Below the pieces are notes generated by a model. That model was not told where the DNA came from, ran no database searches, and saw only the letters and a list, made by a program, of their open reading frames with translations. Positions 887 through 60,110 of a DNA stretch of 64,000 bases are shown in pieces; within the stretch, counting starts at the first letter, position 1, and each line of letters begins with the position of its first letter. The position numbers and the translations under genes are program-made. The stretch is from Escherichia phage JEP8: the sequence record MT764208.1, one strand, 5' to 3'.

Positions 887-2000
887 CATTATGTTCAGCG
901 CGGTTCGCTACTCCCGCGCCCGTTCTCTTGCGAACTGCTACATGTCACCATGTAGATCAGACTATATCACATTCTCATAGAGAATCCTGCCATTTCGAAT
1001 CGCTTGATTCTACTCTACTCGGTTCGTTACCCTTTCGATAGTCGTTGAACAACTGCATCTTTAAGCTCATTTTGATCAAACGGTGTTCTCTTACAGTACC
1101 CGCTATAATTCTTAGCAAAAGGTTTCTTCTTACCAAAGATCTCTTTTCCTGAATTATGTGCTTCAACAAGAAAATTCACCATTTCATCAAATGTGAAACT
1201 TGCAAATTTAGCATAAGTTTCATTACGTTTTGACATTATTTTACTCATAACTTCCGGTCGTTTAGACGCTGAATTTTCGCGTTTCTCGCCAGTATTAAAT
1301 GATACCAACTCACCGGAAACATATCTAGGATCATCACAACTAACTCTAAACCGATTTCCTTCATTATCCTTAACGATAACAGTATTCTTTAGCTTTTCTG
1401 CCATAGAATCAAGACCTTTTCGTATAGTGTCCTCATCAGCCCCGAAATATTTCTTTCCGCTCATATCGGTTCTGGCTTTTCCGGTCTTGTTTTCGGATAT
1501 TTTCAGTCTAACTTCCTCTCGCTTGGCTGGGTTATTGTCTCCAGCGAATGCATCTTTGGTTAACGCCTTCACTTTATCGTCATAAGATCCTCTAGAGATG
1601 AAAGCATATGCTCTCTTGCATTCACCGTTATTGAATATTAAGCACAATAACCGATGCGCCTCGACGTGGTCTTCAAACTTAAGCCTAACAAGATTCCATT
1701 TATCTAACCGATATTCAGGGAACATTGACTTCGGGCATATATGATGCACCTCGGAATATTCTTCACCCTGATACGGATTAGACACCAGTTTAATGTAGTC
1801 GTTTAATGCTTCCTCGTTATGTATTTCGTACTTTCTTAAAATGTCTTTCATCTCGCGCCTCCAATGTATATCAATATCTATATACATTATAAGACACGTT
1901 AGCTCAAAATGCAACTGCTGCTGATTGTCTCCTTAGAGATTTCCCAGCAATTAAGCAGGTTATTCGATCACTGTCACCAGTGAAAGCCCCATATCAGTTT
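887..2000 (-). mobile_element. Putative group I intron in gene 43 carrying an HNH homing endonuclease ORF
   Basis: Upstream exon ends ...ACU UCC CU (U at 2001); intervening sequence ends with G at 887; joining restores T-S-L-Y-P-S. GGGG at intron nt 11-14 can pair with exon CCCU (P1, G-U at splice site). P-like AAUUGCUGGGAAA and Q-like AAUCAGCAGC (UGCUG/CAGCA pairing), S-like GAUAUAGUC, and GNRA-capped hairpins (CACUG-GUGA-CAGUG; CUACAUG-GUGA-CAUGUAG). Confidence 0.6.
1027..1851 (-). CDS. HNH homing endonuclease (encoded inside the gene 43 intervening sequence)
   Basis: HNH motif EVHHICPKS...WNLVRL...EDHVEAH. ORF track 1027..1914 trimmed to the ATG at 1851 (MKDILRKYEIHNEE...), which has GGAGG 6 nt upstream. 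Confidence 0.8.
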   Translation of the reverse strand: MKDILRKYEIHNEEALNDYIKLVSNPYQGEEYSEVHHICPKSMFPEYRLDKWNLVRLKFEDHVEAHRLLCLIFNNGECKRAYAFISRGSYDDKVKALTKDAFAGDNNPAKREEVRLKISENKTGKARTDMSGKKYFGADEDTIRKGLDSMAEKLKNTVIVKDNEGNRFRVSCDDPRYVSGELVSFNTGEKRENSASKRPEVMSKIMSKRNETYAKFASFTFDEMVNFLVEAHNSGKEIFGKKKPFAKNYSGYCKRTPFDQNELKDAVVQRLSKG

Positions 2001-3202
2001 AGGGAAGTAAGGTCAAAGCTCATCATCCAACGGTAAGCATTCGGCACAGGTTCTTTTACAAATGCGCCTGGATAAGTCTGCTTAGGCTGTATCTTATTTT
2101 CCGGTACTACTTTACCCTCTGCTTTCAGAGATCCGAAGATAATAGCATCCCATACCTTCATCGGGTTATATACATGGTTAAACTTAATTTTCGCATAGAA
2201 ACATAGACTATACACAAGATCGATAAATCCACGCTTTTTATCAATCGCCAGCACACGGTCAACGTCGCCGATGTTATAATCGATGTAAAGTTGATGGTTG
2301 TCATCACGCAATTTCTTTAATGGACCATCATAATCAACCTTACCGATTCCTGTCTCATATTCAGCAACATAATCTAATGCATATGTTGGTTGAGTCGTAA
2401 AGCTAAATTTCTTGTACAGGTCAATATAATCAAGGCTTTCGATCCCCATGATCGTAAATGCTTCACGCTCGTTGCCAAAATCATCCTGTGAGATTCTGGA
2501 TTTAATCTTACCGCACGGGCTTAGACGGTTTGCCGTTCGACTTCCAAACTTATTCCCGATACGTTTAATGATATATGGAATATCGAATGTTTCTGTGTTC
2601 CAGCCAGTGAAACCAACGGGTCGGTTTTCCTCAAAGAATCGGATGTATTCTAACAGCAATTCATCTTCTGTGTCATAAACGTTATAAACAACGCGCTCCA
2701 CAATATCAGGTCGAAGAATAGACTTGCTTGCTTCCCAGATTTCACCGTTTTTTCCTTTCAAATCAAATACAAAGAAACGATCATGTAAGGAATCATAATG
2801 CGTAATTGCATCGATAGGATATTTCGCTTCTTCTGGTTTAGGAAATTCTGGGGCAGTGACCTCAATATCAACCCACGCTACACGGATTTTATTTCGGTCA
2901 TATCGAATCTCGCCTTTATATGTATCGGACAGATAGGAGATGATAAAATCATCCATCCCTAGTGCCTCTTGCCCCATTTCCCCCATCTTTTTACGCCATT
3001 TGTTGGCCTCGTTCATAGATGGGAATTTTTTAGCAATGCAAGGCTTGCCATAGATATCTTTATAATTCGTAACCATACCAGGCGCGGCATGATGAAATAA
3101 AGTTGGCGTATATTCAACGTAACGCTCTTGTTCTTGTCCAGCATCATCAATATAACGCTCGTAGATCTTATCACCCACTCGCTCACATGACAGAAAATAC
3201 AT
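2001..3202 (-). CDS. 43: DNA polymerase gp43, upstream (N-terminal) exon
   Basis: MYFLSCERVGDKIYERYIDD...DIEV...FDLTSL matches the T4 gp43 N-terminus and 3'-5' exonuclease region (DIEVT, YIDLY...). ATG at 3202 preceded by GGAGGA; the track start at 3232 is GTG. Frame stops with TGA (1994-1996) just past the proposed 5' splice site. Confidence 0.9.
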
Positions 3203-3234
3203 AATATAAACTCCTCCACTTACGAAAGACACTC

Positions 3235-3263
3235 ATTATAGGGGAATCGACTTGGTTTGTCAA
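3235..3263 (-). promoter_or_regulatory. sigma70-type early promoter upstream of gene 43 (TTGACA-N17-TATAAT)
   Basis: Minus strand: TTGACA (3263..3258), 17-nt spacer, TATAAT (3240..3235), then GGAGGA RBS and ATG at 3202. Confidence 0.6.
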
Positions 3264-3284
3264 TACCCCTATCCCATCAGTATC

Positions 3285-3647
3285 TTAGCGTCCGATCTGA
3301 TATTTCTCGATCAGAGTCCACTCTTCTTTCTGTTTGAAAGACAGTACACGGAAATTATTAACTTCGGTAGTTTCAAAATCACTATCAATTAGGGTACATA
3401 GATTCCACTGCGCCAGAAGTTTTGCAATGTTATTACGGCGTAATTCATCTTCCCACGTCATTTTAACACTACGACCATCTAATTTCAACAACTCCTTGAA
3501 ATGAACGATGTAATAGCGCCCTTTCTTCTGGAGAATATGACAAGACTGATACAGAGTCTTGTCTCGATTGTTGGCAATGCCGCAGCGGGTTAAAGTCTCC
3601 TTAATTTTAAGGAAGTTTTCAGGACTAATCAAATTAATTTCAATCAT
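3285..3647 (-). CDS. regA: Translational repressor RegA
   Basis: MIEINLISPENFLKIKETLTRCGIANNRDKTLYQSCHILQKKGRYYIVHFKE... closely matches T4 RegA; position between 62 and 43 as in T4. Confidence 0.9.
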   Translation of the reverse strand: MIEINLISPENFLKIKETLTRCGIANNRDKTLYQSCHILQKKGRYYIVHFKELLKLDGRSVKMTWEDELRRNNIAKLLAQWNLCTLIDSDFETTEVNNFRVLSFKQKEEWTLIEKYQIGR

Positions 3648-4227: not shown

Positions 4228-5201
4228 TATACGAACTCCAATTCAACCATTAATTGCATTAACAAAAAGACAATGTGAATCTCTTTATCAGCCGCGTGCG
4301 CAAACATCTGATTATTTTCACCGATGATCTCAGTGAGACGAATAATCGACGCTGGCTTAACTTGAGTATACAACTCATTATAAAGTTTCTTGACAAATTG
4401 AGCGTATGTATTGGTATATCGTGGCGCAAGTTTACGCACATTAGCAAACTGTTTAGTTTTAAGTGCTTCCACTACATCGGTTACTTCGGTATTGCTACTT
4501 TCGATAACCATACTCAATACACCAGCATCAATTTTACCGTGTTTTGCGTAACGGTCCAAAAGTTTCATTACGCGCCGGAAATCTGGGAAGTTCTGCTTAA
4601 CCAGTTCCGCCAATACGCGCATTTCTTCTACTGGAACACCTTCTTTATCAAGAATTGCTTTACACCGGACGATCATTTCTTTCATCATGCGAAGCTGGTC
4701 ATCTTTAGTCGGAGATCCAAACGTGATTGGATCAAATCGAGATCTCAACGCTGGGATAATACCTTCTAGATCGTTTGCTGTGATAATGAAGGTCACATTG
4801 TTTGAGTATGCCTCGGAGAAACTACGCAAGTGTCTTTGAGCATCAGCCAGCCCTGCTCGGTCATACTCATCGATAATAACAACTTTGCCTTTTTCTCGTT
4901 TTTCTTCATCGAGTGATACACTCTGCGCAAAGCGTGTAATCTCATCTCGGATAAAGTCAATCTTACAATCTGCGCCGTTAACAAACAGATAATCAACACC
5001 CACATCTTCACAAAGCGCCTTAGCAACGGTTGTTTTACCAGTACCCGGCGATGGGCTATGCAGAATCATTGAAGGGATTCGGCCTTGTTTAACGATCTGC
5101 GCGAAGATCTTTTTATCTGCTTCCGGCAGAATACATTCAGAAATTGATTTCGGACGGTATTTCTGTTCCCACTGAAACTCATTTTCATTAACACTCAGCA
5201 T
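4227..5201 (-). CDS. 44: Clamp loader large subunit gp44 (AAA+ ATPase)
   Basis: Walker A SPSPGTGKTT, Walker B VVIIDEYD, EQKYRP N-terminal motif as in T4 gp44. Start set to ATG at 5201 (GAGAGGTG RBS). Confidence 0.9.
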   Translation of the reverse strand: MLSVNENEFQWEQKYRPKSISECILPEADKKIFAQIVKQGRIPSMILHSPSPGTGKTTVAKALCEDVGVDYLFVNGADCKIDFIRDEITRFAQSVSLDEEKREKGKVVIIDEYDRAGLADAQRHLRSFSEAYSNNVTFIITANDLEGIIPALRSRFDPITFGSPTKDDQLRMMKEMIVRCKAILDKEGVPVEEMRVLAELVKQNFPDFRRVMKLLDRYAKHGKIDAGVLSMVIESSNTEVTDVVEALKTKQFANVRKLAPRYTNTYAQFVKKLYNELYTQVKPASIIRLTEIIGENNQMFAHAADKEIHIVFLLMQLMVELEFV

Positions 5202-9777: not shown

Positions 9778-10025
9778 CGTACAGACTCCATAGACCCACG
9801 AGCAATAACATTCTGGGTAATATCAGCAACCTTACGGGATACGATGGTTGCTAGTTCCAGTCTAGTGATATTGTCTCGGTCGAAAGGAATTTCATCATGT
9901 GTCCACATCCCGTAATTAGAACGGAAGGATAGCATATGTTGACCATTCCGAACAACCTCAAAAACTCGGATCTTAGTAAACTTCTCTAAACTTGCGTTAA
10001 ATTCTTTCAGTGTGTCGGTAATCAT
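9774..10025 (-). CDS. Hypothetical protein
   Basis: 83-aa ORF directly upstream of gene 47. Confidence 0.5.
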   Translation of the reverse strand: MITDTLKEFNASLEKFTKIRVFEVVRNGQHMLSFRSNYGMWTHDEIPFDRDNITRLELATIVSRKVADITQNVIARGSMESVR

Positions 10026-10080
10026 AATAACCTCCCATCAATTTTTTAGAGAGTATAACGGGGATTTCTCCCCGCGTCAA

Positions 10081-11106
10081 CTAACTTTTTGCGCTATTTA
10101 CTTCGGCTAAAAGCTCATCGGAGATACGCTTAACTGCCGCAAGTTCTTCCGGTTCTAGGTTTTGTTCTTCCAGATATTCATAGACCATCTGAATAGTGCT
10201 TTTAACTTCAATAACACCTGTTTCCTGTGATGCGCTACTCTCCAGCTTATGGACCACTTTTAGCTTGTGTACAACGGCCTCTAACGCGCTTTCTAACTTA
10301 GTTAACCCATTATCAGCGACCGTTGCAATTAGGCGCACACTAAGCCCTTTAAAGCGTTCTACATCGATTTTATCATCTGACGGGTAAGTGATACGCACAT
10401 GATAAGTTTTGTCATTCTGGATAAACTCCTTTTTGTGTGTATCTGTATCGAATACCCAAAAACCACGCGGATCATTTTCGTCGCCAGCCGTTAGTGTGTA
10501 TGGTGTACCGATATACGTTACGTTACCGCCATCACTGATAGTATGAAAGTGACCGGAAAACACTTCACGGTATTTCTTGAGGAAGTCCGCGCTATAACCT
10601 TCGGATTTTAACCCTTTATAGAAATAGTAGCCGGACAATTCCCAATGGCCTACACAATATTCGCTGAATGAATTTTGAATAAACTCTAAAACCTCGGATT
10701 TATTGTCATCACAAAACCACGGGAACAGGTCGAATGATACCCCATCAAAGGTAACTGTTTCCGGCTTATCAATAACCTTAATGCAATCATACTGGCTTAA
10801 CACTTCGCGCGGTGCGTTAGGCTGGATCTTATTGCGTTTAAACATATCATGATTCCCGACCGTGATATAACAGGTGATTCCTGCCTCTTCCAGTAATGGG
10901 ATGACCTTAGTACGGTTAAATTTCATGGTTTCATGTGTGATAGCCTTGCGACAATCAAACCAATCCCCTGTTTGAATCCATATCTTAATACCATTTTCTT
11001 TAGAATAATCAACAGCTTTCTTGATCGTGTCTAAAATATACTCATGCACCCACGGATCATCGCCACCGATACCAGTATGCAGATCACCCAAAAGCAAAAT
11101 TTTCAT
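10081..11106 (-). CDS. 47: Recombination nuclease subunit gp47 (SbcD/Mre11-like phosphoesterase)
   Basis: MKILLLGDLHTG, GDWFD, GNHD, GHWEL...GHFH phosphoesterase motifs; near-collinear with T4 gp47. Confidence 0.9.
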   Translation of the reverse strand: MKILLLGDLHTGIGGDDPWVHEYILDTIKKAVDYSKENGIKIWIQTGDWFDCRKAITHETMKFNRTKVIPLLEEAGITCYITVGNHDMFKRNKIQPNAPREVLSQYDCIKVIDKPETVTFDGVSFDLFPWFCDDNKSEVLEFIQNSFSEYCVGHWELSGYYFYKGLKSEGYSADFLKKYREVFSGHFHTISDGGNVTYIGTPYTLTAGDENDPRGFWVFDTDTHKKEFIQNDKTYHVRITYPSDDKIDVERFKGLSVRLIATVADNGLTKLESALEAVVHKLKVVHKLESSASQETGVIEVKSTIQMVYEYLEEQNLEPEELAAVKRISDELLAEVNSAKS

Positions 11107-11150
11107 AGTCTCTTCCTCTCTTCGTTTTCGATGCTCTCACTATATCATAG

Positions 11151-11187
11151 AAAAATAAAAAGGGAAACCCCTTTCGGAGTCTCCCTT
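11151..11187 (-). terminator. Rho-independent terminator (10-bp stem, GAAA loop, U-run)
   Basis: Minus strand GGGAGACUCC-GAAA-GGGGUUUCCC followed by UUUUUAUUUUU. Confidence 0.55.
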
Positions 11188-11196
11188 ATAAAGCCA

Positions 11197-11484
11197 TTAC
11201 AGCATACTTAATACCGTTTGCCGTGTACTAATCCACATAGCAGAAAGCAGTTCTGGCGTGTGTGGCTGTTTGTAGATATCACGTAACTTTCCGATAGCGT
11301 AGATATACGCATCACGGTTATCATCGATGATAGCTTGTTCAGCCCACCGCTTAAGGCGTGCAATCTCTCGCGAGTTCTTACGCAAGATCTTTTCCGCTTT
11401 CTTAGCGGCTTTAGCCTCTAGTTCTGCTTGTACTTTGTCTACTTCATTCACTGCAATCTTGTCATGCTGTTCATCGTAAGTCAT
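11197..11484 (-). CDS. Hypothetical protein
   Basis: 95-aa ORF between 55 and 47. Confidence 0.5.
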   Translation of the reverse strand: MTYDEQHDKIAVNEVDKVQAELEAKAAKKAEKILRKNSREIARLKRWAEQAIIDDNRDAYIYAIGKLRDIYKQPHTPELLSAMWISTRQTVLSML

Positions 11485-11485
11485 G

Positions 11486-11719
11486 TTATTTTACCTCTGG
11501 GATATAATCAATTATTAAAGAAAATTCATCTTCTGATACATTATAGCTATGTGAGATTGTACCCGTCAAGACCTCAAGATCCGGTGATTTGATATTGCAC
11601 GGATCGATAATCACCGGAACGCCGCAATCTCTCAAAAATAATTTGGCGAAATACGGCACGAGGTCAGTTTCAAACTCTGCTTCTTCCAGCAAACGGGAAA
11701 TGTTAATTTTCAATCTCAT
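11486..11719 (-). CDS. Hypothetical protein
   Basis: 77-aa ORF between 55 and 47. Confidence 0.5.
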
Positions 11720-12236
11720 AAAATTGGTCCAGGCTAGGCAATTCCTCAGTCAATACATCTTCAACCTTTGGCGCTTTCGGTTTATTGACCGATTCCTCGT
11801 AGTTGTTGATTTTATCGTAAATGTCCTGTATGAATGCCTCATCAGCAATCTGGCACATATCAGCGTCGCGTTCGTCATATACATGATGCACAAAATATTT
11901 GTATTTTGCGGCTGTCGCTGTTCTCTCTTTTTTAATGCGCTGTACAAAAGCATTAAAGCACGCTTGCGTGATGTAAGCATGAGGATTTTTATACTTTGTC
12001 TCGTCAAAATTAATCAAACCCTTGACCGCCGCTTCGATTCCGTCGTCGATCATTTCTTCGCGCCATGTTTGACTATAACCAGAAAAGTTAAAACGACGTG
12101 ATAGATTTTTAGAGATTTGCATAATTGCTAGGCCGATTTGATCGCTCATTGGAACTTGCCGACCTTCTGCTGCAATTTGTTGTTTCCAACGGCAAATTTC
12201 TTCGTAAAGCTCTTTATTGTTTACATAATCAGACAC
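11703..12236 (-). CDS. 55: Late-transcription sigma factor gp55
   Basis: YVNNKEL...RFNFSGY...[28 protein letters not shown]...FIQDIYDK almost collinear with T4 gp55. Confidence 0.9.
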
Positions 12237-12276
12237 TTCGCACCCTCGCTATTATTTAGGAAATAACCCTTTCGGG

Positions 12277-13746
12277 CTATTCCCCATTACCATTATACTT
12301 TCTTTGCTTAGTTATCCACACTCTAACCATCTCTACTGATTCACCGTCAGACGGATCAAGAGTTTTTCCTTTTTTCTTCATGCGATACTTAAATCCGTTA
12401 AATCTTGCATTCTCTTGCTCGTTAAAGTCGAACATCTTTTTAAATGATTTTCTCCCTTTACGCTCACCACATTCTAGCGGAATCATTCGGTCTGTTATTA
12501 CATTGGCATTAGGTAGAAACGTTTTTAGATAATCCACCAACGCCCAATCAGGAACATATAGATTAACATTCTCCTTGCTCTCGTTGTCTCTCAGGTTACA
12601 ACGCAAACATAATTGAAATGCTGGTTCCAGATAATCAGACACATGACGCGCTTTCAAAAACTCGTTTGTCGGGAGATCACAACTATTAGCAAGACCTTTT
12701 AAAATATCAATCTCCCATCGTTGAGGGTTAAAGCTGAACATCACAGCAACATTTTTATGATGAATGTAAGAGTTAAGACCATAAGATCCGTAAGGTATCC
12801 GCTCACCAATACCATTTGTGCACGCTTCACGGTCCCGATTCACGGTATAAATGAAGTCATCGCCACATTCATTTTTAACCATATCAACAAGACGTTCAAA
12901 GGTATTGTTTGTTTCTGACTGGTGACGCGACCAGCGTTCGGAGTCAGTCATAAGGATGATGTTAACTCTATCTGTATTTTTATACTCTTTGAAATATAGT
13001 CTGGATTCTAGCGCACTCGGAACAAAATCGCAATTTGCATAGTATCGTAGATACTTCCCACTATATGTATCAAAGAGATTTGCACATGCTATCGTAACCT
13101 TTTTAAAGTCTCCCCACGTACCGTGTTTGTTATCGTTCAAGAAAACAATTTTCGACCCATTCTTCCGGTGTCCTTCGTTATGTTTTACCATAACGTTGAT
13201 TTTCTTCTCTAATAACGCCTCATAAAGCCCTCTAAGAGAAGAATCGATCATATCAGTACCATCCTTTGCACTTTCTATCTTTTCTTTGATAGCGGCCTTC
13301 TCAGAGTCTTTTAGAACTAAGTTCTGTAGGCATTCCGATTCGTCGGCGATTGGTTCGCAATGCTTCGTGATAAGTTCAAGATTAGACTTAAACGGATACT
13401 CATTAAATTCAACCAGTTGAGGAACTTCATCAATGTAAAGAGCATATTCACCAAACATTTTTGAACGTTCCATATTAGATAACGCTGTATGTGTAATGAA
13501 TATCACATCAGCACCGTCTTTAACTGATTGCATTATCGACGCTTGCACTGTCTTAAGGCTTCTTAGTCTTGTGCTATCGATCAAGACAGCACGACCGCCC
13601 ATTCTTTTAAACTTATTGTAAGATTGTTCACTTAAAACACGAGATGGCGAAGCAATAACCGCTTTTTCTTTTGTCTCTAGGACGTGGGAAAGTATAGCAT
13701 CAGTTTTCCCCGCCGCTGGCAATGCGATTAATGTTTCAATCTTCAT
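12277..13746 (-). CDS. Uncharacterised P-loop NTPase-domain protein (489 aa)
   Basis: N-terminal Walker A-like LPAAGKTD and Walker B-like LYIDEVPQ; no resemblance to T4 alpha-glucosyltransferase despite lying in the 47-55-nrdH interval. Confidence 0.6.
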   Translation of the reverse strand: MKIETLIALPAAGKTDAILSHVLETKEKAVIASPSRVLSEQSYNKFKRMGGRAVLIDSTRLRSLKTVQASIMQSVKDGADVIFITHTALSNMERSKMFGEYALYIDEVPQLVEFNEYPFKSNLELITKHCEPIADESECLQNLVLKDSEKAAIKEKIESAKDGTDMIDSSLRGLYEALLEKKINVMVKHNEGHRKNGSKIVFLNDNKHGTWGDFKKVTIACANLFDTYSGKYLRYYANCDFVPSALESRLYFKEYKNTDRVNIILMTDSERWSRHQSETNNTFERLVDMVKNECGDDFIYTVNRDREACTNGIGERIPYGSYGLNSYIHHKNVAVMFSFNPQRWEIDILKGLANSCDLPTNEFLKARHVSDYLEPAFQLCLRCNLRDNESKENVNLYVPDWALVDYLKTFLPNANVITDRMIPLECGERKGRKSFKKMFDFNEQENARFNGFKYRMKKKGKTLDPSDGESVEMVRVWITKQRKYNGNGE

Positions 13747-14051
13747 TAGAAACCCTTACGTCGTGCTTTCTGGCATTTCTTGATCATTTTATCAGAAATT
13801 TCGCGCTTAGGTGCAAGCTCTTTCACACCGAAAGCACTAATGCCAAATTCAGAGAGAATATATTCAACCAACAATTCACGCACACGCGCTTTACCGATAT
13901 TCACGCCGTTATTTTTCAGATATGTCTGGCCTTCGACTTGCATCAGATCTAAATCAGCGTCGGTAATATTGATTTCTTCCATGCGCCCAAATCGAGAGTA
14001 AACCATGTGTGCGATTGCATTGTGTACTAACATAATATATTCCTCACTCAA
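13746..14051 (-). CDS. Hypothetical protein
   Basis: 101-aa ORF. Confidence 0.5.
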   Translation of the reverse strand: MSEEYIMLVHNAIAHMVYSRFGRMEEINITDADLDLMQVEGQTYLKNNGVNIGKARVRELLVEYILSEFGISAFGVKELAPKREISDKMIKKCQKARRKGF

Positions 14052-14202
14052 GAATTACTTAATGATACTTACTTTACCAGATCCATGACAATGAGCGCAA
14101 CACCCATCACCACGTAATCCTGTTCCGTTACAGTGTTTACACTTCTTCAACGGTAAAGTCATTATAGCAAATAAAGCAATAATGAACACCGAAACTAAAT
14201 TC

Positions 14203-14472
14203 TCAATAATCATAAATCGCCCTCAGTTCTTTATAGCCTCCAATGTGCTCGTTGTCAATGAATATCTGGGGGTATACAAACCGGAGGCTCTTTGAGTTCA
14301 GCCTCCCCGCCAGTTCTTCAATCATATCACGGTCGGGAATAATGTCAACCCCGACCTGCTTGAATACTGGTTTAAGTGTATACGGAATACCCAGATCATC
14401 CAGTAGCTTCATTGCACTAATACAACCATAACAATGATAAGCCTCTTTAGGTATACCGTATATCTCGATCAT
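14203..14472 (-). CDS. Glutaredoxin-like protein (NrdH-like)
   Basis: CxxC motif (CYGC) near the N-terminus, ~89 aa, ...GGY C-terminal region; adjacent to the anaerobic RNR genes. Confidence 0.65.
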   Translation of the reverse strand: MIEIYGIPKEAYHCYGCISAMKLLDDLGIPYTLKPVFKQVGVDIIPDRDMIEELAGRLNSKSLRFVYPQIFIDNEHIGGYKELRAIYDY

Positions 14473-14945
14473 TTCTCAGCCTTTAATCTTTCTAGTTCTT
14501 CTTCCAGTTCCTTGATCCGTTGGTCACGTTCAAAGTCACGCTGTAACTTAGTGGCGAATACTCGTTTAAACTGATTGTAATCATCGATTTTAAACACTTC
14601 TTCTTCGCCATAGCGACGCACAGAAACTTCGTAGTTATTGAAGAATTGTTGCATCATTGCTTCGGATGATAGTTCTGCTGATACTACTTTAAAATATTGA
14701 TCTTCGGTAGGTGAAAACCAATTACAAGCATAAAGATAAACCTTTTCATTGTCTGGACACTGATAAGCCTTACCATCGATTTCAATCACAGAAACATATT
14801 CAGGTATACTGGATGAATCAATAGCTAAGACTTTAAACGCACGGTCCCCGATAAACTCGGAGATCACACGATTCGCATCACTGGTTGCAAATGCTTTACG
14901 CGCTTGTTCGTTTTTCCACTGATAGGTCATACCAACAACAAACAT
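14469..14945 (-). CDS. Hypothetical protein, WEVGKTY-domain paralog family
   Basis: VGMTYQWKNEQARKAF...IEIDGKAY...; C-terminal charged coiled coil (KELEEELERLKAEK). Confidence 0.6.
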   Translation of the reverse strand: MFVVGMTYQWKNEQARKAFATSDANRVISEFIGDRAFKVLAIDSSSIPEYVSVIEIDGKAYQCPDNEKVYLYACNWFSPTEDQYFKVVSAELSSEAMMQQFFNNYEVSVRRYGEEEVFKIDDYNQFKRVFATKLQRDFERDQRIKELEEELERLKAEK

Positions 14946-14946
14946 A

Positions 14947-15771
14947 TTACCAACCTCGCTCTTTACCGATCAAAAATTCAACTTCACGACGTTTAATATC
15001 TTCTTGAAGGTCTTTAATCTTCTGGCGATCTTGCATGATTTCGTCCATCTTGTCAAGTGCTGTAATGAAATCATCGAAACGTTCAAAGGTTTTACCTTCA
15101 TTTGCTTCGCCAAATTTAACCATTGTCAGGCCGTAACGACTACTAAACAGACGTTTCAACTGTCCAACGATCTTAGAATCAGTAGTGACGACTTCCAATT
15201 CTTCTACTTCTTGAAAGAATTTTCTATCAGAATCAATAAACCAGCTAATTCCTTTATGGTCTTTATCTTCGGTTGCACTCATTAGAGTATGGTCTTTACC
15301 ATCAATTTCAATTACATCAATTTGCCCACATGGACTAACCTTTTTAACAGTAAAAGGTCTATAATTTATTGCTCGTGCAATAACATAATTAAGGTTTGAT
15401 ACGTTTTCAGCATAATGGCAGAAGTCGGTCATAGCATTCGCATCTTTCCAAGTATAAGTTTTACCAACTTCCCATTTCTGGGGAACTTCTTCGACTTCAC
15501 GAAAGAATTTTCTATCGAATGGACTAAAGAAATATGTTGCAGTCCAAATGTCTTTTCCTGTAGCAGTTTTCGCCGTATGATAAACACCGTCTAGCTCTAT
15601 TGCATCAATCCAACCGTTACCCTCGATCTCGATGATGGTAAATGGCTTGTCACCAATAGCTGCACTAATATCGCTGTTAAGTGGAGAAAGAACACCTTCT
15701 CCGTTAGTAATAAACTCAGTTTTAGCGTTTTCGTCTTTCCAAGTGTAAGTTTTACCAATTTCCCATTTCAT
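14947..15771 (-). CDS. Hypothetical protein with two tandem WEVGKTY domains
   Basis: Two internal copies: WEIGKTYTWKDENAKTEF...IELDG...DRKFFREVEE and WEVGKTYTWKDANAMTDF...IEIDGK...DRKFFQEVEE. Confidence 0.65.
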   Translation of the reverse strand: MKWEIGKTYTWKDENAKTEFITNGEGVLSPLNSDISAAIGDKPFTIIEIEGNGWIDAIELDGVYHTAKTATGKDIWTATYFFSPFDRKFFREVEEVPQKWEVGKTYTWKDANAMTDFCHYAENVSNLNYVIARAINYRPFTVKKVSPCGQIDVIEIDGKDHTLMSATEDKDHKGISWFIDSDRKFFQEVEELEVVTTDSKIVGQLKRLFSSRYGLTMVKFGEANEGKTFERFDDFITALDKMDEIMQDRQKIKDLQEDIKRREVEFLIGKERGW

Positions 15772-15783
15772 AATATATTCCCC

Positions 15784-16284
15784 TTAACCGATTTTATCAA
15801 GTTCGTTTAATGCTTTCTCTGCTTCCTGTATAGCTTGCACTCTTTCCGGCATTTTGTCAAGAAAATCTTTCAACTCTTCAAAACTGGAGATATGACGCAA
15901 GGCATTAGCACCGATAGCCGCATGTGATTTGCATTCAAAGCGGATTTTATAATTATCCATAGCCAATTTGAGAAGATCAATTAGATCATGTTCATGACCA
16001 GGCAATAAAACTTCTTTGAAGCACGCTCGGTCGTCATCGGAAAACCATATATTATCACCAACATCGATAGAACTAATATAATCCCCTTCGTGATTATAGA
16101 TTGAACGTACATTACCCCAACGGTCTACCGTAGCGACAGTAAATGGTTTATCTAGATATGTAAACACACCATCAATATTAGGTTTTTGTTCGTAACGCCA
16201 ACAATCACGCAAAATACGCTTTTCGTCCTCACCAACCAACTTATATGTCTTCCCTTCTTCCCATTTCATAATATCATCTCTCAT
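15784..16284 (-). CDS. Hypothetical protein, WEVGKTY-domain paralog family
   Basis: WEEGKTYKLVGEDEK...; C-terminal helical region resembles that of 16274..16810. Confidence 0.6.
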   Translation of the reverse strand: MRDDIMKWEEGKTYKLVGEDEKRILRDCWRYEQKPNIDGVFTYLDKPFTVATVDRWGNVRSIYNHEGDYISSIDVGDNIWFSDDDRACFKEVLLPGHEHDLIDLLKLAMDNYKIRFECKSHAAIGANALRHISSFEELKDFLDKMPERVQAIQEAEKALNELDKIG

Positions 16285-16810
16285 TTTTGATACGTGATTC
16301 TAATTGGATCATACGGTCGCGCGTTTGCTTATATTCGCGGATAGCACCGATTCGGCTAGGCATACCATCCAGTACGCTCTTAATACCTTCTAGGGTAGTG
16401 ATTTTAGCAATGCTATTATGCAATCCTGTCTTATCGATCAACTGAATGTCGTAGGCTTCCATAAGCAGACCCAGACGTTCTAAAGTTAGGTCTTCTTCTT
16501 TTTCTTCCGATTCTGGAATCTTAGGTTCAATAGTAACTTCGGTAAAGAAACGACGCTCACCAGCCCAAAACCACACACCGGAACAGCCAATAGGGGATTC
16601 TTTTAACGTCATAGAGTCGAAATCACTACCAATAATAGTAATTTCTCTAACATCACCATCATCGTCAATGTCTTCTACCATAAACGGGCGACCAGCCAAC
16701 AAGTCCACAATACATCTGTTAATAGACGACGAAAATTTAGTCAGTTCGGCTTTCGACGCTTCGCATTCAATCTTGTAAGTTTTACCAACTTCCCATTCCA
16801 TAATAATCAC
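16274..16810 (-). CDS. Hypothetical protein, WEVGKTY-domain paralog family
   Basis: WEVGKTYKIECEASKAEL...RRFFTEV... Confidence 0.6.
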   Translation of the reverse strand: MIIMEWEVGKTYKIECEASKAELTKFSSSINRCIVDLLAGRPFMVEDIDDDGDVREITIIGSDFDSMTLKESPIGCSGVWFWAGERRFFTEVTIEPKIPESEEKEEDLTLERLGLLMEAYDIQLIDKTGLHNSIAKITTLEGIKSVLDGMPSRIGAIREYKQTRDRMIQLESRIKNER

Positions 16811-21153: not shown

Positions 21154-21181
21154 TATTATAGCATACTCCCTTCGCATGTCA
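21154..21181 (-). promoter_or_regulatory. sigma70-type early promoter (TTGACA-N16-TATAAT)
   Basis: Minus strand TTGACA (21181..21176), TATAAT (21159..21154), then GAGGATTATATT-ATG leader. Confidence 0.6.
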
Positions 21182-22357
21182 AGCACTAACTTTTTTCTTT
21201 ACTGCTTTCACCTTCTGGCGAATTGCTCGAATCTCTTCGATCTCTTTTTCAGTCTCTTTAACAATTTCTTTGCGATTCTGAATATCTGTATCGAGATTAT
21301 CATCAAGTTTAGGCAGCATGTCAATCAAGAACTTTTTAAAGTCTTTCAGGTTTCGGATAACAGCACCTTCACCCATTACCGCCACCCCTACACCATCCGG
21401 CAGATCACCAAACAGCTTAACCAGTTCAGACAGATGATCATGATCTTCTAGTGCTTCTTCCGGTTCAGATGGCAGTTCAACAAAGTTATAACGTTCATCA
21501 TTGCTGATCAAGTGATACCAGCAAAGCCCAAAAGATTTAGGAGTATATTCTACACCATCAACTTCAACCGCGTCAACACTTCCGAAAGAATCTACTTTAG
21601 TTGCCTTAAATCCGTGTTCCAGCTTTTGAACAATTTCAATAACATGACTGGATACGGTTTCCGTATTAAACCAATGAGGCAAATTATGTGGATTTGGCTT
21701 GTAGCGTTCGCCTACTTTAAATCTCTGACCACGCTCTTGCATACGGACATATTCAACTCGCGTGATTTCCGCGAAGTATTCAAATTCGCCACCGTCAAAC
21801 ACACAAGCCCATTGATCACAAAAACGATCTGCCTTAACAGTTTCACCTTTCGCGGTGATCATGGTAGCTGATCCGTGCAATTCTTCTTCAACTAAAAAGC
21901 CATATTCGACAAAATCAACAAGTTTCATAGCTTCTTTGTGATCTGGATCATGCTCTCCCCAGAATCGCTTAAATTCTTGCAAACCTTCTGGGGTAAACGA
22001 ATAACATTTACCTTTTTCAAAGTAAGTCGGCATTGCATCCTCTTTCTTGTTCATCGCTTCGTATGCCTCTTTTGAGATGCGTTTAAAGTATTTACGCTCA
22101 TTGTGCATAATCATAGTAGCCCAATAATCAACAATATCATTAGCGGAATAAACTACATCTCCAGCTTCAATAGTAATAACATGACCGTGGTCATCTTTTT
22201 CTAATACTTTAAAGCCCTTTTCTACGATTTCAGCAACCCGAATATGACCACGGCGCGAAGCATCGGTCAGAATAATTGAATAGCGAGAAAAGTCTAGAAA
22301 CTCATCTTTACCACCTTCACGGAATGCATAGTAATGACCTTCAAAGAATTTAGCCAT
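21179..22357 (-). CDS. Hypothetical protein (392 aa) with repeated domains of the paralog family
   Basis: Shares ERKYFKRISK..., GFKVLEKDD... and a C-terminal ...NLKDFKKFLIDM helical region with 22414..22980. Confidence 0.6.
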   Translation of the reverse strand: MAKFFEGHYYAFREGGKDEFLDFSRYSIILTDASRRGHIRVAEIVEKGFKVLEKDDHGHVITIEAGDVVYSANDIVDYWATMIMHNERKYFKRISKEAYEAMNKKEDAMPTYFEKGKCYSFTPEGLQEFKRFWGEHDPDHKEAMKLVDFVEYGFLVEEELHGSATMITAKGETVKADRFCDQWACVFDGGEFEYFAEITRVEYVRMQERGQRFKVGERYKPNPHNLPHWFNTETVSSHVIEIVQKLEHGFKATKVDSFGSVDAVEVDGVEYTPKSFGLCWYHLISNDERYNFVELPSEPEEALEDHDHLSELVKLFGDLPDGVGVAVMGEGAVIRNLKDFKKFLIDMLPKLDDNLDTDIQNRKEIVKETEKEIEEIRAIRQKVKAVKKKVSA

Positions 22358-24118: not shown

Positions 24119-24931
24119 TCAATCTACGTTAGTTACATAAACTTCTTGCGTATCAGAAGACTTACCACCTGAACGATCTAGGCAATAGGTCTTATTCAAC
24201 AGGACGCAGTTTAAATCATTCCGCTTGATAAAGTCAAGGAGATGATCATTTACCTTTCCCTTATGATGTGTGACATTACTGATACCAAACTGAAAACCAC
24301 GCGCCATAATAGATTCTACCCACTGATAGAATTTAATCTCTTCCTCGTTACTCCAGAACTTATTGTATTCCGCAGAAGTGATAAGGTACGGCGGGTCCAA
24401 ATAAACGAAATCACCTGGCAAGATCTCGATCTCGTCATAGCGACCAGACGTAAAACTGATTCGACCGTCTTTGTTTTCTTCCTTAAAATTCAGGACACGC
24501 TCTACCGCGTTTTCGTTAAAAGTCCGGCGACCAAAATTAGCATTAAATTCTCCCTTTCGGTTATGGCGGTTAATGTTGCTAAAACTGTGCTGAATCAACA
24601 CAAACAGAGATAGCGGATCTGGATTCTCGTTATACTTCTTACGGAATATCATGTAAGCGTCTTTATCATCACGAGACAAATCATTTTCGGCAATAATACG
24701 CTTGATCGTAGAAACCGGATCAGGACACTCGTCAATCGCTTTGTACGCGTCAATTAAGCGGTGATCATAGTCATTAGCCAGCACATCACCTTCGACGTAC
24801 AGAGACACGCTCAAGCCGCCACAGAAGGCATCAACAAAGCGGTTATAGCGCTTAGGGAAATACTTACTAACACCGGGCAATAGCTTTTCCTTATTGCCAG
24901 TATAGGGAATTAAACCTAATGCTTTCTTCAT
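24119..24931 (-). CDS. dam: DNA adenine methyltransferase (Dam, alpha-class)
   Basis: N-terminal YTGNK, motif I FVDAFCGGLSVS, catalytic DPPY (FVYLDPPYLITSAEYNKFW); near-collinear with T4 Dam. Confidence 0.9.
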   Translation of the reverse strand: MKKALGLIPYTGNKEKLLPGVSKYFPKRYNRFVDAFCGGLSVSLYVEGDVLANDYDHRLIDAYKAIDECPDPVSTIKRIIAENDLSRDDKDAYMIFRKKYNENPDPLSLFVLIQHSFSNINRHNRKGEFNANFGRRTFNENAVERVLNFKEENKDGRISFTSGRYDEIEILPGDFVYLDPPYLITSAEYNKFWSNEEEIKFYQWVESIMARGFQFGISNVTHHKGKVNDHLLDFIKRNDLNCVLLNKTYCLDRSGGKSSDTQEVYVTNVD

Positions 24932-26180: not shown

Positions 26181-26489
26181 TTATTTCACGTTAACGCCGT
26201 CATCAATCCAGCCGACGCTATTTTGTTTAACAGTTTTACCATAGGATGCATACTTAATCAAGCATGGTTTAACATCATTATCAAATCTTCCTAAACGTAC
26301 TCCCAAATCAGGAATATCCATGTATGCGGCTTTATATCCCCATGTGCCGTATTCAGAATCAATCTCAACCGGACGGCCTTTAAAAGCATACACTACACCG
26401 TGACGGTCAACGATAACATAGCGATAGCCAGCCGGAAGATACACAGTTTCGCCGTAAACTTTAACTGGAGTAGCAGAAGAGATAAACAT
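26181..26489 (-). CDS. Hypothetical protein
   Basis: Start set to the ATG (MFISSATPVKVYG...) preceded by GAGGATTATATT. Confidence 0.55.
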   Translation of the reverse strand: MFISSATPVKVYGETVYLPAGYRYVIVDRHGVVYAFKGRPVEIDSEYGTWGYKAAYMDIPDLGVRLGRFDNDVKPCLIKYASYGKTVKQNSVGWIDDGVNVK

Positions 26490-26523
26490 AATATAATCCT
26501 CACATCGTTCATTTGATGCGGTC

Positions 26524-26552
26524 ATTATATGATAACCGCATTTTCATGTCAA
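26524..26552 (-). promoter_or_regulatory. sigma70-type early promoter (TTGACA-N17-TATAAT)
   Basis: Minus strand TTGACA (26552..26547) and TATAAT (26529..26524). Confidence 0.6.
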
Positions 26553-26559
26553 CAGTTTT

Positions 26560-26869
26560 TTAAAAATCTTCTTCCGGTTTATATCGACCGTCATCGACTG
26601 GTTTTGGACTGAATCCTTTATGCGTGCGCGGCTTCGCTTCCGGTTTACCAGCAATCATCAAACCAAAACATTTCAGCCCCTTATAACACATAACAATATC
26701 AACCACGGTCCACGTTATAGGCCATACGATTGCAGCAATACAAAATGCTCCTGTATCGACCTCTTTGGTGTCCTTGTCGAATCTGGCGTACAAGCAGAAT
26801 ACTAGATACGAGATCATTGCACCAGTAGTCCAGATATAAAGCACATTAACAATATCTTGTGTTGTCACA
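26560..26869 (-). CDS. Hypothetical membrane protein
   Basis: Hydrophobic segments; probable GTG start at 26869 with AGGAGG 5 nt upstream. Confidence 0.5.
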
Positions 26870-26878
26870 TTATCCTCC

Positions 26879-27157
26879 TTACATGTCTTGCAGTGCATAA
26901 AAGCATTTTTCTTCATAGTCATAGAAAATGTCAAAGTATGCTTTTTCCACATACTCGCCATTAATCCAAGCGGCAGTAACAATCAGAGTGGTCCAGTTAG
27001 ATCCGCTCTCAACGGTAAAGGTTTTAATACCCAGCTTCGCTGCCAAGTCGAACGCAAACCGGACGCAACCACGGCAGGAAGTGATATTGGAAGTTTTGAT
27101 TTTAAAGCCACCGCGAGTTTTAGAAATTTCTACTTTAGCGAAAGACAGGTTGCTCAT
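26879..27157 (-). CDS. Hypothetical protein
   Basis: Start at the ATG with AAGGAGAATCAAA leader (MSNLSFAKVEI...). Confidence 0.55.
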   Translation of the reverse strand: MSNLSFAKVEISKTRGGFKIKTSNITSCRGCVRFAFDLAAKLGIKTFTVESGSNWTTLIVTAAWINGEYVEKAYFDIFYDYEEKCFYALQDM

Positions 27158-51512: not shown

Positions 51513-51578
51513 TGGCTGGCGGGTGTCGATGCCCCGCCGTCATAAATAGTTATATAATGATTTAATATGAGGTGTTTT

Positions 51579-52319
51579 ATGATTAAAGTGCATGACGATT
51601 TCAAAGAACTTTATAATGTATGCTCTGAACGTTTTTATTATGATGAAACGAGCGGAACAATTAGACGAAAATATGATTGTAAGAGCAATCATTATAAAGC
51701 GGGTGATGTAGTAGGATATAAAAGAAAACAAAAAAGAACAAATAGTGAAGATGATGTGTGCTATCTGTTTACTAAGATTGATGGAGTTTCTTATTCAATT
51801 CAACAAATTGTCTTCTTGCTTACCGACGGATATATACCAAATTGCATCGATCATATTAACAGAGACACACTAGATAATCACCGTGAAAATCTTCGTGATG
51901 CATCGCGAAGCGGAAATGCTCGCAATAAGTGCAAAGTATATAAAAATGGTTTCGCCTCTTCCGATTACATTGGTGTGTCTAAGCGGGGTTCTGGATTTAG
52001 GTGTCGTATTAGAATAAACCATGTTATTGCATATGATGAAACGTTCGAAAATGAAACATCTGCTGCATATGCATATAACGTAGAATGTATAAAATTAGGT
52101 GTCAGTGAGTATACCAACTTTAATAAATTTGAAGACGAAGAATCTGTTAGGAAACTTTACGAAAAAGAGAAAGAAAATAAAGAGTTTCAAGAATATTGGA
52201 AGGGAACACATAAACAGGGTAAAAGATGGGGTGCTAAAGTTAAGAGTGTGCGTTTGGGTACATTCGAAACAAGGGAAGAAGCTAGACTAGCTATAATTCG
52301 CTACAAAGAGGGGTTTTGA
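51579..52319 (+). CDS. HNH homing endonuclease with two AP2-like DNA-binding domains
   Basis: HNH motif [18 protein letters not shown]; AP2-like segments [38 protein letters not shown] and [35 protein letters not shown]. Start at the second ATG (GAGGTG RBS). Confidence 0.8.
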
Positions 52320-58938: not shown

Positions 58939-59271
58939 ATGGCACGCGTAAATATTAAATTGCATTACACAATGAATAAAGCTAAGTTCCCAATGCAAAA
59001 GCATTACTATGGTCTACGTGCACAAGATCCTAAACTCTATGGTACTCATTGGTTTTGTAAACATGATAACCAATGGCACACATACGAAGAAATGCACGAG
59101 ATGATGAAACAGGGTATTGAATTTAGTTATTCTAATTATGACCATCGTATAACTTGCATTCGAAAATTGAAACGATGGATTCGTAAGAATCCGCAATTTA
59201 AAAACTTTGTGTTCTTTATGTCTCATGTTTATTTGGGGCATAGCGTTACCGTCACAGCAAAGGTTAAATAA
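58939..59271 (+). CDS. Hypothetical protein (inserted module)
   Basis: 110-aa ORF with GAGGAA RBS; His/Cys-containing. Confidence 0.55.
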   Translation: MARVNIKLHYTMNKAKFPMQKHYYGLRAQDPKLYGTHWFCKHDNQWHTYEEMHEMMKQGIEFSYSNYDHRITCIRKLKRWIRKNPQFKNFVFFMSHVYLGHSVTVTAKVK

Positions 59272-60110
59272 TGGCACGACTTTCTAAACAAGAACAAAAA
59301 TTACACGACCGAGCAATGGAGTTGATTAATTCAGATCGCCCATTGACATATGAAGAAAAAGAATTTTGCTATAATAACTATCATGGCGATGGGCTAGGTG
59401 GTTCCGGTGCATTCTTTACCCCAGAAGGGCTTGCATGGGATTTTACCATCGATGCACATTGCACAGGAAAAGTATTGGATCTTTGTGCTGGGATCGGTCG
59501 CTTATCTTTTTGTATGTTACATCGTTGTAAGCCAGAAAAGATCGTATGCGTCGAACTCAATCCAGAATTTGCGCGGATTGGCAAGCGACTATTACCGGAA
59601 GCAGAATGGATCACCAGCGATGTATTCGAATTTGAGTCAAACGAAAAATTCGATGTTGTAATTAGCAATCCACCTTTCGGGAAAATCAATACAACCGACA
59701 CAAAGGATGTATTTGAGTACACTGGCGGCGAATTTGAATTTAAGGTTATGACGCTAGGGCAAAAGTTTGCCGATGTTGGCTATTTTATTGTTCCTGTGGG
59801 TTCCGCTGGTTTTGCTTATTCCGGCAGACCTTATTATGACGGGACCATGAAGTCTAATAAATATCTAAAATGGAGCAAACAAACTGGTTTGGTGACTTAT
59901 GCCGGATGTGGGATCGATACATCAATCTATCGCGATGAATGGCACAGTACCAACGTTTTAACAGAAGTGGTTGAGGTTCGGTATTACGAGAAAGAAGCCG
60001 TAGAAGCGCCTAAATCGCGTCCTAACGAACAAATAGAAGAAAGTAAGGAGATTACCTTACCGAAACAGGAAAGCGAGTCTGGGACGCTCTCAGATTTGTT
60101 TGACATTTAA
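59271..60110 (+). CDS. SAM-dependent methyltransferase with NPPF motif (gamma-class amino-MTase fold; DNA N6-adenine/N4-cytosine or RNA/protein target unresolved)
   Basis: Motif I VLDLCAGIGRLS, acidic loop VCVELNPE, motif IV VISNPPFG, in the order I then IV. Confidence 0.7.
   Translation: MARLSKQEQKLHDRAMELINSDRPLTYEEKEFCYNNYHGDGLGGSGAFFTPEGLAWDFTIDAHCTGKVLDLCAGIGRLSFCMLHRCKPEKIVCVELNPEFARIGKRLLPEAEWITSDVFEFESNEKFDVVISNPPFGKINTTDTKDVFEYTGGEFEFKVMTLGQKFADVGYFIVPVGSAGFAYSGRPYYDGTMKSNKYLKWSKQTGLVTYAGCGIDTSIYRDEWHSTNVLTEVVEVRYYEKEAVEAPKSRPNEQIEESKEITLPKQESESGTLSDLFDI

Follow-up and report, generated by a model that had tools for sequence, protein, structure and literature searches.

The window analysed here is a 64,000-nucleotide stretch of Escherichia phage JEP8 (sequence record MT764208.1). 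Between genes 47 and nrdH it carries an open reading frame (ORF) for a 489-amino-acid (aa) protein, whose product is very probably a superfamily 2 (SF2) ATPase. We describe the protein as a divergent helicase-like ATPase of SF2, with XPD/DinG-like architecture and no iron–sulfur (Fe-S) cluster. Our favoured reading, to which as a whole statement we give a probability of about 0.6, is that of an accessory DNA helicase or translocase of replication or recombination, of the SF2 XPD/DinG type, possibly working with the product of the adjacent gene, a gp55.2 homologue. The gene and the codons of its main elements lie in the window as follows.

12277..13746, minus strand: gene for the 489-aa SF2 helicase-like ATPase (RB49ORF044c, phrog_2467), ATG start
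13699..13722, minus strand: motif I (Walker A), LPAAGKTD, residues 9–16, from conservation
13417..13440, minus strand: motif II (Walker B), LYIDEVPQ, residues 103–110, from conservation
13102..13416, minus strand: insertion of about 105 residues (111–215) between motifs II and III, at the position of the XPD/DinG Arch domain
12589..12618, minus strand: motif VI, FQLCLRCNLR, residues 377–386, the arginine-finger motif of the second RecA-like domain, from conservation
12280..12465, minus strand: basic two-helix C-terminal tail, residues 428–489, from the model and composition

The ORF and its LPAAGKTD and LYIDEVPQ stretches are as the initial annotation described them. The region 10000–15000 is 97–98% identical to RB49, JSE, phi1 and about 55 further RB49-like phages, and we assign the window on its sequence to Krischvirus, that is, to an RB49-like phage. 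The 489-aa product is 100% identical to RB49ORF044c (AAQ15319.1, annotated ‘hypothetical protein’), from which the ORF differs at 11 nucleotides; relative to a second Krischvirus contig there are 16 nucleotide differences and again no amino-acid change. These 11–16 nucleotide changes against none in the protein indicate purifying selection on the gene. PHROG 2467 (listed as of unknown function) covers the protein end to end (E 9e-175), and a tblastn search detected homologues in 243 phage records, 237 of them full-length. On the strength of the full PHROG match, the full-length homologues and the purely silent changes we take the ORF to be a real gene and not a chance reading frame.

Homologues are found in RB49-like phages, in RB43-like phages of Escherichia, Citrobacter, Cronobacter, Enterobacter and Klebsiella, in Aeromonas phages of the 44RR/31, 25 and Aeh1/CC2/PX29 types and, at 35–42% identity, in T4-like phages of Proteus, Morganella, Providencia, Serratia and Erwinia. 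Among all matches, identity to the 489-aa protein is bimodal, at least 95% in Krischvirus or below 60% in other genera, and the Escherichia-named matches are all explained by RB49-like and RB43-like phages. No T4 orthologue was found, either by tblastn of the phage records or in the syntenic interval of T4, which holds only 55.1 at this place; this agrees with the earlier remark that the protein bears no recognisable likeness to T4 enzymes. The pattern of matches suggests that hydroxymethylcytosine (hmC)-containing close relatives of T4 also lack the gene. As the cause of its absence from T4, a functional tie to cytosine modification, as opposed to loss in the lineage, is unproven.

Two alignments were used to define the conserved residues, one of 23 T4-like members and a wider set of 34 relatives at 18–42% identity. 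Invariant in the 23 T4-like members are the following motifs.

Residues 10–15: motif I, PAAGKT
Residues 30–42: motif Ia, IASxSRxLxxQS
Residues 81–89: motif Ib-like, VIFITHxAL
Residues 103–109: motif II, LYIDEVP
Residues 218–223: motif III-like, TIAxAN
Residues 377–386: motif VI, FQLCxRxxxR

Within motif I, P10, G13, K14 and T15 are thus all invariant in the T4-like set. Across the 34 relatives the initiator methionine, G13, K14, D106, E107, Q378, R382, R386 and G323/N325 are invariant, and T15 of motif I and P109 of motif II nearly so. Because G13, K14, D106, E107, Q378, R382 and R386 are retained throughout, the catalytic residues carry the signature of an active ATPase, as predicted from the alignment. 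The C-terminal tail is basic (residues 421–489: isoelectric point 9.8, 17 lysine or arginine residues) and forms two helices in the model, 443–458 and 468–484. A search of NCBIfam with the 489-aa protein returned no match and a PADLOC search only noise (best E 0.009). When solved structures were searched by sequence, the single protein as query gave nothing and the family profile gave two chance-level matches (E 0.7 and 1.4), neither of them a helicase.

AlphaFold2, run with the family alignment, produced a confident model of the protein (predicted local distance difference test, pLDDT, 87.2; predicted template-modelling score, pTM, 0.76). In a Foldseek comparison with the PDB, XPD (3crw and 3crv; E 6e-11 and 2e-10), DinG and CasDinG ranked first. 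The best structural matches covering the most residues were DNA helicases with an Arch domain; generic SF2 motors (Ino80, HsdR, Chd1, SecA, DEAD-box domains and T4 UvsW) scored 12–14.6 over at most about 250 aligned residues. Nearly all of the top 50–60 fold matches were SF2 or related P-loop motor ATPases, and there was no glycosyltransferase among them. The extra aligned residues and the structured insertion at 111–215 of the model are consistent with an Arch-like domain. XPD and DinG carry a 4Fe-4S domain between motifs Ia and II; in contrast, the 489-aa protein has about 60 residues there and no cysteine. C130 and C380 are the only invariant cysteines in the 23 T4-like members.

Membership of the DEAD-box class was considered and rejected: a Q motif is impossible with motif I starting at residue 10, motif II reads DEVP, the motif III region reads IACAN and not SAT, and motif VI reads QLCLRCNLR and not HRxGRxGR. 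The guess of the initial annotation that this is a ‘helicase or NTPase’ was borne out, as motifs, fold and relatives all point to an SF2 helicase, and the structure prediction that it had proposed as a fold check returned an SF2 helicase-type P-loop NTPase. The KAP, Zot-like and kinase-type options that it had also listed had no Pfam match at E ≤ 0.1, and the fold is that of a two-domain SF2 protein.

A profile search of 1.84 billion representative proteins recovered 1323 relatives, 759 of them at E ≤ 1e-10, which are split into short forms of about 470–560 aa and long forms of about 750–890 aa. Many short forms end in a clear helix-turn-helix (HTH), with tails such as GISRATAYRWLK (Pfam HTH_23, HTH_29 and HTH_7). 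One such helicase–HTH short form is carried by an island of Pseudomonas sp. PB120 near tRNA-Ser (NZ_RWIN01000051.1, 8077–20720), in which a tyrosine integrase, the helicase–HTH protein, a 1106-aa protein, two response-regulator proteins and a serine recombinase follow each other. The 1106-aa protein has no Pfam match, and the island may carry as cargo a defence or signalling system that has so far gone unrecognised.

The C-terminal extension of the long forms contains the motifs vLDfDnGdL, NSfS..rFRv and sGlDxSK..sSlFYLP, followed by a PriCT-like helical end, and was not recognised by Pfam. Comparison of this extension with known proteins gave values of 9.6 for HP0184, 9.5 for the cyanophage S-2L PrimPol, 7.5–7.6 for the Prim-PolC/LigD polymerase domains, 7.1 for CAPP Prim-Pol, 6.6 for RepB' and 6.0 for archaeal PriS. 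The long forms therefore have the helicase first and an archaeo-eukaryotic primase (AEP)-type primase-polymerase domain last. The superfamily is a helicase module that mobile elements have combined with DNA-binding or DNA-priming modules, and it is mainly because the relatives carry these modules that we prefer DNA over RNA as the substrate of the phage protein.

Other searches with the relatives added little. Against solved structures, the long-form profile matched only the generic motif I/Ia regions of DDX52, reverse gyrase and NS3. Two distant relatives were compared with plasmids, one yielding three partial Sinorhizobium matches and the other none; of two genome scans for the contexts of distant relatives, the first found none and the second one Pseudomonas island. 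The contexts of the relatives in phages Atu_ph07 and PH357 were uninformative. PF02399 (Herpes_ori_bp) matched 1 of the 34 relatives, weakly (E 0.0014).

A weak sign of the family’s helicase nature was already reported in 2006, and a prediction that probably covers it followed in 2018, so the novelty of the assignment is modest. RB49ORF044c was listed with a weak Pfam DEAD/DEAH match (E 0.069) by Nolan et al. 2006 (PMC1524935). Kazlauskas et al. 2018 described helicase-like domains fused to All3500-family primases as ‘only remotely similar to SF2’, reported that the closest homologues of these domains are uncharacterised proteins of ‘some T4-like phages’, and predicted that viruses and plasmids have a new helicase family of their own (PMC5862659).

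The surroundings of the gene were compared with T4. Neighbouring genes and signals in the window are given below in the direction of transcription.

14203..14472, minus strand: nrdH, from window gene order
14321..14348, minus strand: sigma-70-type promoter-like site inside nrdH, TTGACA-16-TATGAT with TG, 11/12 matches
14055..14213, minus strand: small Cys-rich 52-aa ORF (CxxC..CxxC), homologue of RB49ORF046c (phrog_3931, E 4e-10)
13746..14051, minus strand: gp55.2 homologue (phrog_1475; Pfam DUF7570, E 1e-28), sequence TTTCTAATGAAG
11703..12236, minus strand: gene 55, late sigma factor (phrog_234, E 4e-63; RB49 annotation)
11486..11719, minus strand: a-gt.5, from window gene order
11197..11484, minus strand: a-gt.4, from window gene order
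11160..11187, minus strand: terminator-like hairpin and T-run 3' of a-gt.4, 12-bp stem with 6 GC pairs
10081..11106, minus strand: gene 47, from window gene order

According to the ORF list of the window, the 489-aa ORF is the largest between gene 47 and nrdH. In the T4 record the order in the direction of transcription is nrdH, 55.6, 55.5, 55.4, 55.3, 55.2, 55.1, 55, a-gt.5, a-gt.4, a-gt.3, a-gt.2, mobB, a-gt, 47.1, 47. Aligned by gene order, the 489-aa ORF fills the slot of the small T4 gene 55.1, between 55.2 and 55. The T4 a-gt slot maps to 11107..11196, which is a 90-bp spacer here, and because the T4 order puts it there the 489-aa ORF does not occupy it. The suggestion that the ORF sits where T4 has alpha-glucosyltransferase hence holds for the broad 47–55–nrdH interval and fails for the a-gt slot itself. 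RB49 has an HNH/AP2 endonuclease gene (ORF040c, 26380–26934) between a-gt.4 and gene 47, in the place of T4 a-gt/mobB; with an endonuclease in RB49 and the 90-bp spacer in the window, this slot looks like a hotspot of mobile endonucleases.

The stop codon of the gp55.2 homologue overlaps the helicase start in the window as TAATG. In 29 T4-like loci from a viral contig collection, the block nrdH, 55.2-like gene, helicase, 55 and 47 is kept in most; gene 55 was not found downstream in RB43-like loci, where the genome is arranged differently and gene 34 follows in RB43. In 26 of these loci the upstream ORF runs up to the helicase start or overlaps it. It belongs to the 55.2 family (by tblastn or PHROGs 1475, 4822 and 11230) in RB49-, Proteus/Morganella-, RB43- and Aeh1-type phages, is a ‘DprA-like’ protein of about 187–190 aa (phrog_768) in the Aeromonas 25/31/44RR type, and is a 111-aa ORF of unknown kind in the Serratia/Erwinia type. 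From these junctions, the helicase would usually be translationally coupled to a gp55.2 homologue in T4-like phages. T4 gp55.2 is a DNA-binding inhibitor of E. coli topoisomerase I (PMC4396842). In Aeromonas phage 31 the ‘DprA-like’ gene lies at 2941–3504, and an annotated repeat, 31repeatA (5071–5141), stands between the helicase gene and 55.

The site inside nrdH is a candidate early promoter for ORF046c, 55.2, the helicase and 55, and a candidate only, as the count of sigma-70-like sites in the region is not above chance. The 52-aa ORF, which has only weak zinc-finger-type Pfam matches, is the first gene past it. Together with the hairpin after a-gt.4 the site would frame one early transcription unit, both ends being consensus matches. 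Gene 55 begins 40 bp downstream of the helicase gene; in the spacer between the helicase stop and gene 55 (12237–12276, minus strand) there is a small hairpin, CCCGAAAGGG, with TTATTT and an A/T-rich stretch after it, possibly a weak attenuator or else a promoter/stem-loop element as described for RB49-like phages.

The textbook systems of T4-type replication and recombination rest on gp41, Dda and UvsW as their three helicases. RB49 also encodes all three, so the 489-aa protein would be an additional helicase-like gene and not a replacement; substitution for Dda or UvsW was accordingly rejected. In the reading we favour, an ATP-driven SF2 motor with two RecA-like domains, an Arch-like insertion in the first, no Fe-S cluster and a short basic helical tail would be made early, from the same transcription unit as genes of nucleotide and DNA metabolism. 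It would open or remodel intermediates of phage replication or recombination, such as the origin, R-loop and D-loop structures or stalled forks, and act alongside gp41, Dda and UvsW. The DNA (not RNA) substrate, unwinding, the role in replication or recombination and any cooperation with gp55.2 are what we infer, and a 5'-to-3' polarity would follow by analogy with XPD/DinG.

Several observations weigh against this account. The Pfam DEAD match is marginal (residues 11–130, 27.4 bits against a cut-off of 26), and the Helicase_C model does not match the second domain. Since T4 and apparently its close relatives lack the gene, and gp41, Dda and UvsW are already present in RB49, its function is auxiliary or conditional. 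SF2 domains associated with AEP primases need not unwind: E. coli IEE hydrolyses ATP in a DNA-dependent manner but has no helicase activity (PMC9943667). A sequence does not reveal polarity or substrate, and our literature search found no functional or experimental study of any family member. For a part in origin initiation the phage protein offers analogy only, because it has no primase domain and no recognisable HTH, and iterons and inverted repeats are absent within 10900–14600; an HTH in the C-terminal tail was rejected, since hhalign detected no similarity to the HTH tails of distant relatives (probability 0.3%).

A more specific form of the favoured reading joins the helicase and the gp55.2-type topoisomerase I inhibitor in a coupled two-gene module, found across T4-related groups and not in T4. 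In it, gp55.2 would keep negative supercoiling in place locally as the Fe-S-less motor opens or clears R-loop or origin structures. We regard this as improbable; if true, it would give those phages a route of replication initiation or restart that T4 lacks. In that case the phage protein would also be a free-standing version of the helicase that is fused to primase-polymerases in bacterial mobile islands. A fourth helicase-like gene conserved in RB49-, RB43-, 44RR-, Aeh1-, Proteus- and Serratia-type phages would mean that a large share of the family has an unexamined DNA-transaction function, and characterising the phage protein would also annotate well over a thousand uncharacterised proteins.

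Other explanations need to be weighed against an accessory replication or recombination helicase. The protein might instead be a motor for counter-defence or host takeover that strips or remodels host proteins on DNA, or shields the unmodified-cytosine phage DNA from defences that target nucleic acids, with no part in the phage’s own replication. The gene is indeed present in T4-related groups including RB49, whose cytosine is unmodified, and missing from T4; as an accessory gene it lies, within a variable interval, beside gp55.2, which manipulates a host enzyme, and SF2 proteins can be protein-displacing translocases (PMC9943667). We nevertheless consider this unlikely, as no defence or anti-defence family was matched above the PADLOC noise, conservation over phages of Escherichia, Aeromonas, Proteus, Serratia, Erwinia and Klebsiella better suits a core DNA transaction than a host-specific arms race, and relatives carry fused primases. 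Somewhat less likely still is a domesticated or selfish replication-initiator helicase, derived from an integrative element or a satellite-type Rep, whose tail would recognise a specific phage sequence or which would be a mere mobile-element remnant. Relatives that adjoin integrases and carry an HTH or a primase-polymerase do have the architecture of mobile-element initiators, the weak Herpes_ori_bp match of one relative points the same way, and a sister group has been likened in the literature to the herpesvirus origin-binding helicase UL9. Against this, the T4-like tail gives no HTH signal, no repeats or iterons flank the gene, PF02399 does not match the 489-aa protein at E ≤ 0.1, and the fixed syntenic position and phage-like conservation differ from patchy mobility.

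A DEAD-box-type RNA helicase acting on phage or host mRNA, for instance in the control of translation or decay together with the goF-like and RegB-type RNA functions nearby, is very unlikely given that the Q motif, DEAD, SAT and HRxGRxGR are all missing, the structural matches of largest coverage are Arch-domain DNA helicases, and relatives are fused to DNA primase-polymerases. The idea of a DNA-modification enzyme or cryptic glycosyltransferase in place of alpha-glucosyltransferase drew on position in the broad 47–55–nrdH interval alone, to which it may be added that GT-B enzymes also have two Rossmann-like domains. It is effectively refuted: remote homology to a glycosyltransferase is absent from the Pfam, PHROG and NCBIfam results as well as from the top fold matches, the invariant Walker A, Walker B and arginine-finger motifs are those of an ATPase, RB49 DNA has unmodified cytosine, and the gene lies outside the a-gt slot.

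The initial annotation had linked the absence of a-gt and the presence of two methyltransferases to a DNA-modification strategy other than glucosyl-hmC, with the P-loop protein as a possible participant. It was right that the 47–55–nrdH interval has no glucosyltransferase, as no ORF there matched a glycosyltransferase family in Pfam or PHROG. It was also right that this phage does not use glucosyl-hmC, a point already established for RB49, which has neither dCMP hydroxymethylase nor beta-glucosyltransferase and whose DNA is digested by HpaII and NheI, described as sensitive to methylated cytosines (PMC4041780). In the RB49 record neither b-gt nor gene 42 is present between uvsX and gene 43, where uvsX is followed by a small ORF and then 43. 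Both methyltransferases are in the window.

24119..24931, minus strand: Dam methyltransferase, D12 class, E 4e-30
59271..60110, plus strand: 279-aa methyltransferase, Pfam MTS, Methyltransf_25 and Eco57I-like

They are not diagnostic of a modification strategy, Dam being found in T4 too, and nothing ties the 489-aa protein to DNA modification. The picture of modification in RB49-type phages is unchanged by the helicase finding. The 279-aa methyltransferase gene lies in the baseplate gene cluster between genes 8 and 9 and is probably RB49ORF143w.

Some further features of the window were noted. A 1.1-kb insertion (887–2007) interrupts gene 43 (DNA polymerase). It is absent from RB49, carries a 295-aa HNH homing-endonuclease ORF (1027..1914, minus strand; phrog_12434, E 4e-131) and recurs at 100% identity in Phage ELT4; the records of kvi, MIZ4, ECD7 and JK32 annotate it with the polymerase as two coding sequences. 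Another probable homing endonuclease is a 250-aa ORF with an HNH_3 endonuclease domain (51567–52319, plus strand), which stands among the structural genes, past the gene 5 region and before gene 6. Directly upstream of nrdH (14469–16810, minus strand), four consecutive ORFs of 158, 274, 166 and 178 aa have a ‘W.(I/E/V)GKTY’ module in common at their N-termini, present twice in the 274-aa ORF, and look like a tandem expansion of paralogues. The two that were scanned, of 158 and 274 aa, match phrog_5347 and goF-like ‘mRNA metabolism modulator’ PHROGs, as does a 392-aa ORF at 21179–22357 (minus strand).

Comparison with known systems places the 489-aa protein between several SF2 groups. T4 UvsW, an SF2 protein that unwinds R-loops and branched DNA, is not orthologous: it lacks an Arch-like insertion, has no sequence similarity to the 489-aa protein, and RB49 has its own uvsW. 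Herpesvirus UL9 (PF02399), to which the sister group pVOG9714 was reported to be most similar (PMC5862659), consists of an SF2 motor followed by a C-terminal DNA-binding region and initiates replication. It is much larger and has a defined origin-binding domain; in contrast, no such domain and no target repeats were found for the 489-aa protein. E. coli IEE, like the long-form relatives, combines an AEP domain and an SF2 motor on a mobile-element protein, in the opposite domain order and with a motor that resembles RadD. IEE stabilises DNA ends without unwinding (PMC9943667), and by analogy it cautions that ‘helicase-like’ need not mean helicase.

The closest structural parallel is the XPD/Rad3/DinG family of 5'-3' DNA helicases, including the Fe-S-less CasDinG of type IV CRISPR systems, with which the modelled protein shares two RecA-like domains; its insertion after motif II may correspond to the Arch domain. 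Sequence identity to XPD and DinG is 9–16%, with no sequence-level match to any solved structure, and motif II is DEAH there and DEVP here. Unlike XPD and DinG, the phage protein is smaller, has motif I at its extreme N-terminus and ends in a basic two-helix tail. In its remote SF2 similarity, T4-like hosts and AEP-fused relatives it resembles the pVOG1685/9714-like putative helicases of T4-like phages, SPbeta and AEP-primase fusions (PMC5862659); it fits that description and may belong to pVOG1685 itself. The fusions reported there have the primase first and the helicase last, whereas in the long forms described here the helicase comes first and the primase-polymerase last.

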